Source: a virus
Lineage: Duplodnaviria; Caudoviricetes
DNA length: 30,506 nt
Strand: one strand, 5' to 3'
Virus record (IMG/VR): IMGVR_UViG_3300020045_000159
Location: 1-30,506 of that record
The notes under the pieces are model-generated. The model saw nothing but the letters and a program-made list of their open reading frames with translations. It had not been told where the DNA came from and searched no databases. Shown here piece after piece: positions 4,786-15,828 of the stretch. The position numbers were made by a program, and so were the translations under genes. Position 1 is the first letter of the stretch; each line of letters begins with the position of its first letter.

Positions 4786-5996
4786 CTAATACACATAGTA
4801 TTGCCCTTTGTTGGGATTGTCTAAATGATGAATTACATTATACCTAATCCCATCAATTGCGTGATTATAAGCATCCACATACAAATTGCTTGACTTATTA
4901 CTGTAAATGTAATTGTTTAGCTCTTTAGCTATGTTTTTACTTTCAGGCTCAACAACAATTAAAAAGTCTTGCATCCGTAAAATGCCCGATTCTACTGTTC
5001 CTTTTTTAACCCCCTGAATATTTAACCTTGCAAATTCCAAGTCAGCTATCAATCGAGATTCCGCAGAGTCCGCTATTATAAGCTTGTTGCCACACTTTGT
5101 TTTTAATATCTCTGTTAATACATGGGTTTTTAGCCCATTTTGATAAATATGTTCTTTTACATAAATTATTTTCTTTTTCTTGTCAATAGCAACTTCGGAA
5201 AGGGCATCGGGATCGACAGAAAATCCGAAGTCTAACCCAAATGATGTTTGTAATCCATCGGGATTGAAATCGCCAAACTTCCAATTAGTAAATACTACCC
5301 CCTCTGCTTTGTCAAGCCATCCTCCAAGTATTGTATGTTGGAACTTCTTTGGATTGTTTTCCTTTAATGCTTCAATCTGATTCAAGAATGATTCAGAAAG
5401 GTATTCGGCATTATCTTGGTAAGTCGTATGGATATAAGTTGTATCGCCTTTGCTTGTTGATTGCCCAGCTTCTATACCCTTTTGCTCAAAGAACCGATTG
5501 TAAATGAAATGTTCCTTTGTTGTTGGATTTAGAATCAGTATAACCCTATTTTGTTTCTGCGAGTTACGCACCGACAAATCAATCTTATCAAATACATCTT
5601 CATCAACTAATTCTTCTGCCTCATCCAAGACAAATGTAGTTACCCCTGATAATGATTTAAGATTTGCCGTTTGTGTGCCTGACGAAGTCTTAATTCCCTT
5701 GAATAGAATCTTGCTACCTGTACGAAGATTTATTATTTCATCCTTTGTTATGCTGAAATCATTGTGCAATTCTGCCATCTCAATCTTCTCCACGAATTCG
5801 GGAATAATTGAGATGTGAGCCGAAGTTAATGTGTAACGAGTAAATAGTATTGTATGCCCTACTTCGTATGTTAGAAGCAAAATAAATGAGTTAAGGGCAA
5901 AGGATTTACCGCTCCCACTTATCGCCCCCCCGTTATAACGAAGTATCTGCTACTTTCGCTAAACAGGGGGATATATTTTTTATTGATTGTTATCAT
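4786..5996 (-). CDS. terL: Terminase large subunit (PBSX-type), interrupted by 5 extra nt (5921-5917) in Walker A; 401 aa if bypassed
   Basis: ATG 5996 overlaps terS stop (ATGA); MITINKKYIPLFSESSRYFVITGGR* then, in another frame, GSGKSFALN...; Walker B FVLDEAEE, ILILNP coupling motif, nuclease motifs GLDFGF..DP and NHAIDGIRY. Confidence 0.9.
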
Positions 5997-6253
5997 TTGA
6001 ATTTGACAATCTCTTTAATATCAAAGTCTTTAACCGTATGCGTAGTGTTTTGGTCAATCACTTGCTTAGGCATACCGAATTGATATTGAAAGAATAGCTT
6101 TACTGCCCATTCTTTCTCGCTTTCCAATGCATTTGTGAATGCTTCGAATGCTTTTGGCTCTAATGGCGTTAGCTTTTCAACTAACGATTGCTCCTCTGCC
6201 TTTGACTTACGACCTGCTCCCTCCCGTTTGCCTCCGTGTGATTTTGAATCCAT
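5993..6253 (-). CDS. terS: Terminase small subunit, 86 aa
   Basis: Start re-assigned to ATG 6253; HGGKREGAGRK motif; immediately upstream of and coupled to terL. Confidence 0.7.
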   Translation of the reverse strand: MDSKSHGGKREGAGRKSKAEEQSLVEKLTPLEPKAFEAFTNALESEKEWAVKLFFQYQFGMPKQVIDQNTTHTVKDFDIKEIVKFK

Positions 6254-7888: not shown

Positions 7889-7970
7889 ATTTGATTTGTT
7901 TAAAGTTTCGATGTCTTTCCATCAGTCACATTTTTATTTCAGTTCGTAAACTATGGTAATGACACCATTG

Positions 7971-8039
7971 TAGTCAGGACAGTTCCGAACTGCATCTCTG
8001 TGCTACAATGCACAGGCGTTACCTTACGCTACGCTGACT
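7971..8039 (-). ncRNA. tRNA-like element B (degenerate cloverleaf)
   Basis: AGTCAG(C)G/CCTGACT acceptor, GCGT-AAGGTA-ACGC D arm, CTGTGC-ATTGTA-GCACAG arm, GCAG-TTCGGAA-CTGT T-like arm. Confidence 0.6.
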
Positions 8040-8089: not shown

Positions 8090-8231
8090 TAGTCAGAACA
8101 GGATTCGAACCTGTAAATTGCTAATCGTTGTGAGCCTATATAGCATTCATCTCACCGCTTCTACGATTGCGTATACCAATGCTTTTTTATTGTTTGCAAC
8201 CAATAATAGGCATATATTCCGCCACCTGACT
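8090..8231 (-). ncRNA. tRNA-like element A (expanded cloverleaf, no anticodon loop)
   Basis: AGTCAGG/TCTGACT acceptor, TGGCGGAAT...TGGTATACGC D arm with inserted hairpin, perfect T arm ACAGG-TTCGAAT-CCTGT. Confidence 0.7.
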
Positions 8232-8476: not shown

Positions 8477-8666
8477 GTTGTGCCTTGTTAATCTTTACAT
8501 ATCCTCTTCCCGATAAGAATGATTCAATACGATCCGTGTCAGCTCCAAGTAGCCATCGCTTCTTTCCCTCTTGCGAGTAATGGTCGTGAAATAGTTTATC
8601 GTAATCTATTTCAACATAGATGGTCTTGTCTGCTGACCGATAGTAATGCTTTCTTTGCTTCTTCAT
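8415..8666 (-). CDS. Hypothetical protein, 83 aa
   Basis: ORF track; ATGA coupling. Confidence 0.65.
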   Translation of the reverse strand: MKKQRKHYYRSADKTIYVEIDYDKLFHDHYSQEGKKRWLLGADTDRIESFLSGRGYVKINKAQHDKFRESLTIELPTSRVLDR

Positions 8667-8884
8667 AGCTTTTCTATTTCTTGTTTAACTTCATTGTAAA
8701 AATACATTTCAGAATCAATATCTGCATTATAAGATATTTCATTTAATATCCATGAAATTTCATCAACTGCGATTAATGCAAGTTTTTTACATTCAAACCA
8801 ACAATAAGATTGAAATGGAATATTATTTAATCCAAAAGTATAATACTTTCTAACTAATTCTTCTGCTTTTTCTTTAGGTGTCAT
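8663..8884 (-). CDS. Small hypothetical protein (MTPKEKA family, copy 1), 73 aa
   Basis: Paralog of 13002-13214. Confidence 0.75.
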   Translation of the reverse strand: MTPKEKAEELVRKYYTFGLNNIPFQSYCWFECKKLALIAVDEISWILNEISYNADIDSEMYFYNEVKQEIEKL

Positions 8885-8885
8885 A

Positions 8886-9551
8886 TTAGAATAAAGTTAA
8901 TTGTTGAATATGTTGTTGAAATCTTTTCTCGCTTGCATCAAAGTAATCCTTGTCAAGTTCAAATCCAGTAAACTCAAATCCCATATCGTAAGCGGAAATT
9001 CGTGAACTACCTGAGCCTAAATGAGTGTCAAGTATTTTATCTCCTTCTTTTGCATAGTTTTGCAACAACCATTTATACAAATCAATTGGCTTTTGAGTTG
9101 GATGAATTTTTTCAATTGCGGAAGTTTTACCTTGCAAATTTCCGTAATATCGATAATCAAATTGTTTTGCTACTTTATTAAAAGAAGTCCAAGCTAATTC
9201 TCCATCACTAAAATTCTCAACTGGATTTCCTTTAAACCAAAAAATAAAACCTTTACATCCATTTAGCCATAGTTGAGGAAAATAATTACCTCCCCAAACT
9301 ATTTGGTTTTGGCTTACCCTTTTTAATTCATTAAAATATAAATCATTTGGAATAGAATCATCCCAATTTGAATTTTTATATTTATTTGCCTTTACTCTTT
9401 CGCCAGTTGATGCCTTGTTTGTTCTATTAAACTCGCCAAAATTAATCCCATAAGGCGGATCGACAATAGCCAACTCAAAATGCTTATCAGGATATTGCTT
9501 CATACCCTCAATGCAATCCATATTAAATACTTCTGATTTTATAGTTTTCAT
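8886..9551 (-). CDS. DNA N6-adenine/N4-cytosine methyltransferase (beta class), orphan
   Basis: DPPY catalytic motif precedes HPTQKP and LDTHLGSGS SAM-binding motif. Confidence 0.9.
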   Translation of the reverse strand: MKTIKSEVFNMDCIEGMKQYPDKHFELAIVDPPYGINFGEFNRTNKASTGERVKANKYKNSNWDDSIPNDLYFNELKRVSQNQIVWGGNYFPQLWLNGCKGFIFWFKGNPVENFSDGELAWTSFNKVAKQFDYRYYGNLQGKTSAIEKIHPTQKPIDLYKWLLQNYAKEGDKILDTHLGSGSSRISAYDMGFEFTGFELDKDYFDASEKRFQQHIQQLTLF

Positions 9552-12920: not shown

Positions 12921-13005
12921 CTTTGATTAGTTTTAGTTTACGATAGTTGTTTTGTAATTCTTTAGCAAGATGTGCTTGCCATTGGTTAAAGGTTAGCTCT
13001 TTCAT
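12865..13005 (-). CDS. Small hypothetical protein, 46 aa
   Basis: Hand-translated MKELTFNQWQAHLAKELQNNYRKLKLIK...; ATGA coupling. Confidence 0.5.
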   Translation of the reverse strand: MKELTFNQWQAHLAKELQNNYRKLKLIKDEKLQKVSRRKSTNLHRV

Positions 13006-13214
13006 GATTTTATTATTTCTTCTTTAACTTCTTTGTAAAAAAATACAGTATTACTTGAAGTATAAAATGGTTTACCATAAATAACTAAACCAAAATTATT
13101 CAATATCTCATCTACTGCAATTAATGCACATTGTTTTGCATCAGGCATTAAGAAATGTTTATTGCCATAATTAAACTTATTAACTAATTCTTCTGCTTTT
13201 TCTTTTGGTGTCAT
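13002..13214 (-). CDS. Small hypothetical protein (MTPKEKA family, copy 2), 70 aa
   Basis: Paralog of 8663-8884. Confidence 0.75.
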   Translation of the reverse strand: MTPKEKAEELVNKFNYGNKHFLMPDAKQCALIAVDEILNNFGLVIYGKPFYTSSNTVFFYKEVKEEIIKS

Positions 13215-15110: not shown

Positions 15111-15232
15111 AACTTTTCAATGATTGATACGATTGTAAGAATTAAGGCTAATTTTGCAGCTAATATTAAAGCTGGCTTAATGTCGGCAGTTGTGAAGTCT
15201 TCGCCAATCATTAGTGAGATAAAGTTTTTCAT
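15107..15232 (-). CDS. Small membrane protein, 41 aa
   Basis: Hand-translated MKNFISLMIGEDFTTADIKPALILAAKLALILTIVSIIEKL*; ATGA overlaps both ends. Confidence 0.55.
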   Translation of the reverse strand: MKNFISLMIGEDFTTADIKPALILAAKLALILTIVSIIEKL

Positions 15233-15828
15233 TTGTCCGGTGTTTTAGGTTTATTAATAACATTCAAATATGCTTTATAACTCTCGAATACTGCTCTGAT
15301 ATGCGTAAAATCGTCGGTATTCCTTTGCGTTTCATAAACTTTATCAGATTCAAAGAATTTATCCCAATCCTCGATTGATTTGGTTTTGCATCCGATTTTT
15401 ATCATGCCATCAACTATACCATGCGACCACCTGCATATCATTGGCATTACTGCTCCCTGCAAGTATGCTCCACGCAAGTCTGCTTCACGCAAGTCTGCTC
15501 CACGCAAGTCTGCTTCACGCAAGTCTGCTCCACGCAAGTCTGCTCCCTGCAAGTATGCTCCACGCAAGTCTGCTCCACGCAAGTATGCTCCCTGCAAGTC
15601 TGCTCCACGCAAGTCTGCTCCACGCAAGTATGCTCCCTGCAAGTCTGCTCCCTGCAAGTATGCTCCACGCAAGTCTGCTCCCTGCAAGTCTGCTCCACGC
15701 AAGTATGCTCCCTGCAAGTCTGCTCCACGCAAGTCTGCTTCACGCAAGTATGCTCGCTTACCATCTAATTCGCCATTTACCCATTTTAAATGCGAATCTA
15801 ATACCGATTTTAATTCTTCTTTGTTCAT
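15229..15828 (-). CDS. Pentapeptide repeat protein, 199 aa
   Basis: 20 x A(D/Y)L(R/Q)(G/E), N-terminal H.KW..G...GKRA cap and C-terminal IKIGC...W domain. Confidence 0.95.
   Translation of the reverse strand: MNKEELKSVLDSHLKWVNGELDGKRAYLREADLRGADLQGAYLRGADLQGADLRGAYLQGADLQGAYLRGADLRGADLQGAYLRGADLRGAYLQGADLRGADLREADLRGADLREADLRGAYLQGAVMPMICRWSHGIVDGMIKIGCKTKSIEDWDKFFESDKVYETQRNTDDFTHIRAVFESYKAYLNVINKPKTPDK
15454..15753 (-). repeat. 15-bp tandem repeat x20 (coding)
   Basis: GCA (G/T)AC TTG C(GT/AG) G(G/A)A. Confidence 0.95.

Follow-up and report, generated by a model that had tools for sequence, protein, structure and literature searches.

How can a phage make its large terminase when the gene carries a stop codon inside the Walker A motif? 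The question is raised by a 30.5-kb virus record, estimated to be 95% complete and called the window below (the whole stretch of DNA that was analysed), in which the reading frame of terL breaks at the Walker A arginine and resumes five nucleotides later. A preliminary description, made from these letters alone, had suggested that ribosomes bypass the gap, and we examined the locus, its relatives and comparable systems with this proposal in mind.

The break and the protein it interrupts

All features of the break lie on the minus strand, where the terL ATG (5996-5994) shares ATGA with the TGA of the upstream gene.

5993..6253, minus: upstream gene of 86 aa, probably terS, the name being taken from its position
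5919..5996, minus: terL ORF1, 25 codons (MITINKKYIPLFSESSRYFVITGGR) plus TAA
5973..5981, minus: KKY codons, weakly resembling the T4 gene 60 nascent-peptide motif KKYK
5926..5970, minus: mRNA hairpin of 19 bp, -25.8 kcal/mol (z -3.7 for a 111-nt region)
5922..5924, minus: Walker A arginine codon CGA, the predicted take-off codon
5917..5921, minus: coding gap TAAGT, 5 nt, with the stop TAA at 5921-5919
5919-5917, minus: predicted landing triplet AGT, overlapping the stop TAA
4786..5916, minus: terL ORF2, 376 codons starting at the resume codon GGG (GSGKS...)

ORF1 ends in ITGGR, its final codon CGA at 5924-5922 coming after a run of seven G (5931-5925) and before TAA at 5921-5919. The junction reads GGR-CGA, then TAAGT, then GGG-SGKS, and the codons after the gap, from the GGG at 5916-5914, are GGG AGC GGT AAA TCC. 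Reading the window codon by codon thus agrees with the preliminary description on three points, namely that a stop-containing 5-nt gap sits in the Walker A motif, that skipping these 5 nt joins 25 and 376 codons into a 401-aa TerL with GGRGSGKS, and that the protein an ORF finder reports from 5880 (364 aa) has no Walker A.

Pfam assigns ORF2 to PF04466 (E 5e-29) and PF17288 (E 1e-12), that is, a Terminase_3 ATPase and an RNaseH-like nuclease, which makes it a PBSX-type large terminase; a Walker B-like FVLDEAEE and acidic nuclease motifs are also present. It is the single terL among the 51 minus-strand ORFs of the window in a PHROGs scan, and the probable terS matches neither Pfam nor PHROG. 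Among cultured phages the TerL is closest to those of Nonlabens phages P12024S/L (64% identity) and then to those of Riemerella phages (47%), which points to a probable host in the Flavobacteriaceae; the gapped terL genes as a group are PBSX-type Terminase_3 genes of probably Flavobacteriaceae phages.

Elsewhere on the minus strand of the window, two stretches between genes, 7970-8039 and 8090-8156, are possibly degenerate tRNAs: for one, ARAGORN gives a tRNA-like element whose anticodon has two bases, and the other is a weak tRNA match that stays under the Rfam threshold. The same strand carries a 199-aa protein consisting largely of pentapeptide repeats of the A[DY]L[RQ]G type, encoded by strongly repetitive DNA (15229-15828), two paralogous small genes that start MTPKEKAEELV and match phrog_21441 (8663-8884 and 13002-13214), and a DNA methyltransferase gene (8886-9551; phrog_67).

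The Walker A motif reads [TS]GGRGSGK in 120 of 120 homologues, with an insertion in none, these being the best-scoring full-length matches and hence close relatives. The same motif is found in PDB 4idh, which we take to be Sf6 gp2. The P-loop arginine of the T4, Sf6 and P74-26 terminases has its counterpart in R44 of D6E, and the mutation R44A abolishes ATP hydrolysis in the D6E enzyme, as reported in the available part of PMC5727402. Because the motif is invariant and R44A abolishes the ATPase, a TerL that lacks the P-loop arginine, or that has extra residues in the loop, is unlikely to be functional.

Recurrence of the gap and the segment that moves with it

When relatives were collected by similarity, without the gap pattern, 78 of the closest 80 viral loci could be scored; 8 carry a 5-nt gap, all using TAA, and 70 are intact. 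A pattern scan of IMG/VR gave 17 stretches, 16 of them terL relatives with the identical 5-nt gap, and metagenomes from JGI/ENA gave 75, of which 7 are terL and the remaining 68 were dropped as chance matches. With the gap length left variable, 23 of 26 matches were gapped terL genes, 7 of these 23 having an in-frame 6-nt form, CGA TAA CGN; three longer-gap matches were other ATPases and were rejected. A scan for the 6-nt form hit terL in 11 of 15 matches and added the distant terminases L201/L203, L204 and L202. Permitting any stop codon and gaps of 5-14 nt in genes that use GGT AAA, we obtained gapped terL genes in 11 of 36 matches, two of them new (L265 and L237), and 25 matches that are not gapped terL. 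For gaps of up to about 33 nt after GGG GGN CGA TAA, only 5 and 6 nt were found in terL.

After removal of duplicates the tally stands at 32 distinct gapped terL sequences including the window, 21 with five nucleotides, 10 with six and one with eleven. Every gap is preceded by the codon for the same arginine, opens with a stop (TAA, TAG or TGA) and is followed by GGN-(S/T)-GK, though the search patterns demanded a stop codon and stop-less gaps would be invisible to them. Most of the gapped sequences are close relatives; five occur in distant terL genes 22-39% identical to that of the window, L190, L201, L204 and L237 among them. Individual gap forms, given as arginine codon followed by gap, are:

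L201/L203: CGT TAG CGT, 6-nt form, 22% identity to the window TerL
L204: CGA TAA CGT, 6-nt form, 31% identity, nearest cultured relatives Clostridium phages
L202: CGC TAA CGA, 6-nt form
L132/L190, relatives of L201: CGT TAA GA, 5-nt form
L265: CGA TGA TGT, 6-nt form
L237: CGC TGACAAAATGA, 11-nt form, 39% identity

A scan for the L201 family returned four loci, two gapped copies and two intact. The terL ORF2 of L094 has 504 codons where about 378 are usual, possibly through a C-terminal extension or a lost stop. The gapped genes all come from metagenomic assemblies. The single DNA run examined contained three contig pieces, and the gap is spanned by none of them. Among cultured phages, blastn with the gap regions of the window and of L204 gave short unrelated matches only, and the terL of Nonlabens phage P12024S, the one cultured relative inspected, is uninterrupted. 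The pattern GGG-GGN-CGN-TAA found 5 stretches in GTDB genomes, none of them terL, and identified no prophage or host there.

Relatives that are all uninterrupted would have counted against the preliminary description; gapped relatives recur instead, and the gap is a real, conserved feature. Between gapped genes dN/dS has a median of 0.068 and a maximum of 0.151 (39 pairs, first 240 codons of ORF2), and between six gapped genes and their ungapped sisters it is 0.012-0.058. These ratios indicate that the gapped genes are under purifying selection, and together with the recurrence they show that the gap is due neither to error nor to decay.

The gap does not travel alone. The last 72 coding nucleotides of ORF1, which we call the first exon, behave as a mobile cassette: in six gapped/ungapped sister pairs (L069/L068, L019/L013, L019/L023, L032/L013, L122/L036 and L122/L071) this exon is 58-75% identical and the adjacent flanks 91-99%, whereas gapped genes of different clades are 75-86% alike in it. 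The gap and its flanking segment have moved as a unit into near-identical genes. On a tree of 89 TerL proteins, gapped and ungapped members are interleaved, with 15 label changes against a minimum of 3 and a shuffled mean of 22.6, the tree being a quick search in which the six-nt rows have long branches. The codons KKY, 17-19 residues before take-off, are present in 24 of 26 gapped and 23 of 66 ungapped genes, an enrichment that may be a passive passenger of the cassette. In T4 gene 60 the KKYK stimulator lies about 30 residues ahead of take-off.

Proposed decoding across the gap

A predicted hairpin accompanies the gap. Folding of the 60 nt before the arginine codon gives -16.8 to -25.8 kcal/mol in every one of the 26 gapped members of the window's family that are long enough to score, compared with -3.0 to -14.8 kcal/mol in 66 ungapped terL relatives. 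Tested against synonymous-codon shuffles, the fold is significant at p<=0.01 for 18 of the 19 distinct gapped segments and for none of 58 ungapped ones; two genes that turned up later, L237 and L265, likewise have strong predicted hairpins (z -5.9 and -5.0). An alignment of 18 gapped sequences, which are related to one another, shows pairing in 79% of cells and two-sided changes at 5 of the 19 base pairs. For two-sided change, only two of the five covariation measures, the cell count and the score, clearly exceed control (a), lying above all 500 shuffles; the number of pairs was equalled in 124 of the 500 shuffles and the number of types in 205. A significant hairpin is lacking in L190, L201 and L204, the three gapped genes that are most distant. 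From the folding and shuffling results we conclude that the hairpin is under selection in the gapped family members.

The upper stem stops 11 nt short of the take-off codon, close to the 9 nt at which the 5' stem-loop of T4 gene 60 is placed in the available part of bioRxiv 10.1101/2024.12.09.627546; the lower stem, formed by a C run and a G run, would zip only as the ribosome moves on. With an exit boundary of 9 nt, sliding by 5-6 nt has a computed folding gain of -4.6 to -9.4 kcal/mol for gapped genes and of -1.3 kcal/mol on average for ungapped ones, while a 12-nt boundary leaves only -0.3 to -4.3 in gapped genes, overlapping the ungapped range. The modelled gain at 9 nt fits the proposal, as put forward in the accessible text of the same preprint, that exiting mRNA is the driver. 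In the window, the centroid fold leaves both CGA and the gap single-stranded, and no A-site stem-loop contains the stop; in L237 and L265 the stem extends over the take-off codon. As for a 3' barrier hairpin, gapped and ungapped genes are no different (p 0.14).

CGA precedes the gap in 25 of 26 gapped family members and stands at this place in none of 66 ungapped ones. Immediately ahead of the resume codon, all 7 six-nt matches of the variable-gap scan have CGN, in a triplet that the pattern left unconstrained, and all 16 five-nt terL matches from IMG/VR have AGY, of which the last two letters were unconstrained. Take-off and landing are a matched CGN/CGN in 9 of 10 six-nt relatives; landing is unmatched on TGT in L265, AGA in L190 and TGA in L237. 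In the window the pair CGA/AGT agrees at two of three positions, and here as in L190, L237 and L265 the landing triplet is mismatched with the anticodon at position 1. In L237 a TGA stands directly before GSGKS in the downstream frame, and the halves can hence be joined by skipping alone.

In a Bacteroidota genome, not that of the host, a scan covering 30 of the 36 tRNA loci found the arginine anticodons ACG, CCG, TCT and CCT and no TCG. As ACG is present and TCG absent, a single tRNA would there read CGA, CGC and CGU. Were A34 of the ACG anticodon modified to inosine, it would form a weak I-A pair at CGA, and this would favour take-off. The G run is 5-6 nt from the landing triplet, a spacing that fits a T4 mini-Shine-Dalgarno, and hairpin pairing already explains the run. 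Bacteroidota ribosomes occlude their anti-SD.

Taken together, these features suggest the following sequence of events. Peptidyl-tRNA-Arg would release from CGA while UAA occupies the A site, slide 5 nt and re-pair on AGU at two of three positions, after which translation would resume at GGG and give the 401-aa TerL with GGRGSGKS. We infer that the slide is driven by the 5' hairpin, which would refold as the mRNA leaves the ribosome. That ribosomes hop over the gap in this manner seems to us quite probable. The route from CGA to AGU to GGG is that of the preliminary description, and our comparisons add support for it in the CGN landing triplets and the 11-nt variant, the hop itself staying a prediction. 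The 5-nt form is likely to be a one-base-shorter relative of an in-frame CGN-stop-CGN stop-hop. Take-off at a glycine codon with landing on GGG was also considered and rejected, for it deletes the arginine.

The halves could be joined in other ways. Slippage on the G run, either a -1 ribosomal frameshift or the transcriptional addition of one G, would produce TGGAISGSGKS. It is suggested by the G7 run, one of only two runs of six or more G on the minus strand, by an ORF2 frame in the window that meets no stop for 10 codons before the gap, and by the reading of AGY as Ser in the -1 frame. However, such a product loses the invariant arginine and adds two residues, which is unseen in the 120 homologues; many gapped alleles have G5 only, the frame of L237 is blocked by a stop, and pairing with the upstream C run accounts for the G run. 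Since slippage also leaves the conserved CGN plus stop and the in-frame 6-nt forms unexplained, we think it improbable.

Excision of 5, 6 or 11 nt from the RNA, by a nuclease and ligase or by degenerate splicing guided by the hairpin, would restore the canonical motif in all gap forms. The hairpin abuts the site, and removal of GATAA or ATAAG leaves CGY, which keeps the arginine in both variants (T and C). Yet excision predicts neither an obligatory in-frame stop at the start of the gap nor a repeated arginine codon, and in the 5-nt form the gap lies outside the hairpin. No Rfam family near the site is above threshold, and no candidate enzyme was recognised among the 51 ORFs, many of which are unannotated. 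The odds against excision are about as long as those against slippage. Nor does the break resemble the remains of a group I intron or a pair of intein halves: the gap is of 5 nt, its site in the window has no Rfam match, and ORF1 and the start of ORF2 are without intein sequence.

A split protein is harder still to credit. Here translation would stop at TAA and re-initiate at the overlapping AUA, the 25-aa peptide complementing in trans; an ATA (CG-ATA-AGT) does lie in the ORF2 frame and overlaps the stop much as in ATGA coupling, and an ungapped terL discussed below (L221) possibly starts at an ATAA overlap. The 6-nt forms, L190 (TTA) and L237 (stop before GSGKS) nevertheless have no in-frame start, the backbone of the P-loop would be broken, and there is neither intein nor dimerisation tail, which makes this reading very improbable. 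We rate just as low a readthrough of the stop in 6-nt forms (GGR-X-RGSGKS), which would leave the 5-nt form to be decoded through a different shift. In its favour, a 6-nt gap preserves the frame and an arginine four residues before the lysine; against it, TAA ends more genes than any other stop in the window genome (30 of 51), TAA, TAG and TGA are all used at the site, and a search for suppressor tRNAs gave none; readthrough is also inapplicable to the window, cannot serve the 5- and 11-nt forms, and would require two mechanisms for alleles that share hairpin and position. Lastly, the metagenomic origin of every gapped gene, with none among cultured phages or in the GTDB pattern scan, could point to a defective allele or sequence error, a reading effectively refuted, as far as sequences can tell, by recurrence in independent assemblies, purifying selection, a selected hairpin and a fixed position in distant families.

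Homing nucleases and known bypassing systems

A nuclease gene lies directly 5' of terL at 11 of 31 gapped loci and at 1 of 68 ungapped ones (Fisher p 6e-6, a value inflated by near-copies and by the collection of gapped loci by pattern and ungapped loci by similarity). The association amounts to about five independent pairings, and the 11 gapped loci are:

NUMOD4-HNH directly upstream of gapped terL: L070, L081, L085, L093, L204, L237
GIY-YIG directly upstream of gapped terL: L089, L115, L265
Other HNH directly upstream of gapped terL: L117, and L114 by 63% identity to that of L117

L202, with a weak T5orf172 match, and L190, unclassified, were not counted as nucleases. The two gapped genes found last, L237 and L265, are both nuclease-adjacent. 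In the unbiased set of the best 80 viral loci a nuclease stands at 1 of 8 gapped loci, and a counted nuclease is absent from 20 of the 31 gapped loci, among them the window, where the scan of 51 ORFs showed no free-standing homing endonuclease beside the gap. In L204, a serine-recombinase-like ORF (2408-2986, minus) lies upstream of the HNH and gapped terL, at the position expected for terS.

Searching with the HNH of L070, we found 15 loci. Five have it directly before terL (four known gapped genes and L221), seven beside intein C-halves inserted in Walker A of ATPase genes other than these, and three elsewhere. In the seven (L222-L228), homologues 39-47% identical to the L070 NUMOD4-HNH lie out of frame before intein C-halves that end in HN and are followed by SGK[ST] of a Walker A, which from our reading of the sequences belongs to helicase-like proteins in L222-L224 and terminase-like ones in L225-L228; from its sequence the layout looks like a fractured-gene arrangement. 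In L221 (at 2307-2420) the HNH directly precedes an ungapped terL with Walker A GGRGSSKS and a hairpin of -19.9 kcal/mol, and given this locus the hairpin may be a component of the nuclease cassette and have no part in hopping. The terL of L221 possibly starts at an ATA within an ATAA overlap. GSSKS is also seen in L072, which has a GIY-YIG-like gene upstream of terS.

A likely scenario is that the nuclease would cut uninterrupted Walker A DNA, the insert and the 72-nt exon would have spread as the immunity part, and the window genome would have kept the gap without an adjacent nuclease. Provided that the hop occurs, we lean moderately towards nuclease immunity as the origin of the insert. We would give an even chance to the broader proposal that several unrelated homing endonucleases targeting the terL Walker A (NUMOD4-HNH, HNH and GIY-YIG) have converged on a stop insert of 5, 6 or 11 nt, skipped by a tRNA-Arg that the hairpin pushes even onto a two-of-three match. 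The preliminary description had seen in the hop a means of limiting or timing TerL; the link to homing endonucleases favours immunity instead, and a regulatory role, though possible, has nothing specific in its favour.

A close parallel is T4 gene 60 and its MobA element, whose insert protects against nicking and can persist once the nuclease has gone (bioRxiv 10.1101/2022.08.31.505936, in the portion available). Judged by that preprint and bioRxiv 10.1101/2024.12.09.627546, the system shares several features with the gapped terL genes. A stop immediately follows the take-off codon, and a stem-loop on the 5' side is proposed to push the ribosome; the insert interrupts a conserved part of an enzyme that the phage needs; free-standing nucleases of the HNH or GIY-YIG type lie alongside; a homologous segment upstream has been swapped; and the nuclease can be lost while the gap is retained. 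It differs in its host gene, a topoisomerase, and its gap of 50 nt, against terL and 5-11 nt here, and in taking off from Gly (or Asp) rather than Arg. Unlike in T4 gene 60, landing in terL is often mismatched at position 1 and the gap is too small for an A-site stem-loop; unlike with MobA, the nuclease gene here is placed between other genes and does not itself interrupt the ORF. On these sequence differences, gapped terL is not a member of the T4 gene 60/MobA element, and the main text of the 2022 preprint does not contain the word 'terminase'.

Bypassing in a terminase has one precedent, that of phiHau3 and a prophage, for which the available sections of PMC10732093 report a UAA variant demonstrated by mass spectrometry in E. 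coli, a hungry UUA codon as trigger, a proposed regulatory role and an occurrence in 3 of 100 genes. These terL inserts too are short (7-10 nt) and non-coding, with junctions at highly conserved motifs; we infer that KGWG|KD, in which the phiHau3 g6/g7 junction falls, is the Walker A of that family. There, UUA is read in a Streptomyces host; here a true stop, TAA in the window, opens the gap after an Arg codon, and the closest cultured phages infect Flavobacteriaceae. Those sections of PMC10732093 mention no link to homing endonucleases, in contrast to the gapped terL family, which has one.

Synthetic stop-hops offer a second comparison. The constructs described in the accessible part of PMC5009743, with matched codons around a stop and 9 nt decoded as one amino acid, correspond to the 6-nt form CGN-stop-CGN; they are described from constructs and, when unstimulated, as low-level, whereas gapped terL is natural, conserved and paired with a selected hairpin. 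The same part of that review knew of no natural occurrence of in-frame stop hopping as of 2016. Fractured genes likewise consist of conserved enzyme genes, one terminase included, that are interrupted in association with a free-standing nuclease nearby (PMC2677866, as far as available), but they are repaired by protein trans-splicing, while gapped terL has 5-11 extra nucleotides and no intein. The byps of Magnusiomyces mitochondria, as the available parts of PMC5009743 and bioRxiv 10.1101/2022.08.31.505936 present them, are also mobile inserts that are skipped, with imperfect take-off and landing tolerated; they differ in length (27-55 nt), in an unused sense codon in the A site, in mitochondrial ribosomes and in having no nuclease. 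In the literature searched, where subscription papers and preprint supplements were thinly covered, we found no description of an Arg/stop gap in terL, and Hau3 and T4 were the only precedents.

Judged from sequence comparison, the gapped terL genes are most likely a variant of programmed translational bypassing that uses a stop, Arg codons and gaps of 5-11 nt. Bypassing is known from very few natural genes, and this family would offer the shortest candidate gaps, in an essential gene. It also forms a natural allelic series, with gaps of 5, 6 and 11 nt, three stop codons, matched and mismatched landing, presence or absence of the hairpin, and ungapped sisters. With a cassette of about 80 nt two questions can be tested, whether refolding of the exiting mRNA drives the slide and how much mismatch the P site tolerates on re-pairing. 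For annotation, the gap means that roughly one terL gene in ten in this phage group is wrongly recorded as having no Walker A. If the proposal is true, homing endonucleases would have a third way, besides introns and inteins, to occupy the P-loop.
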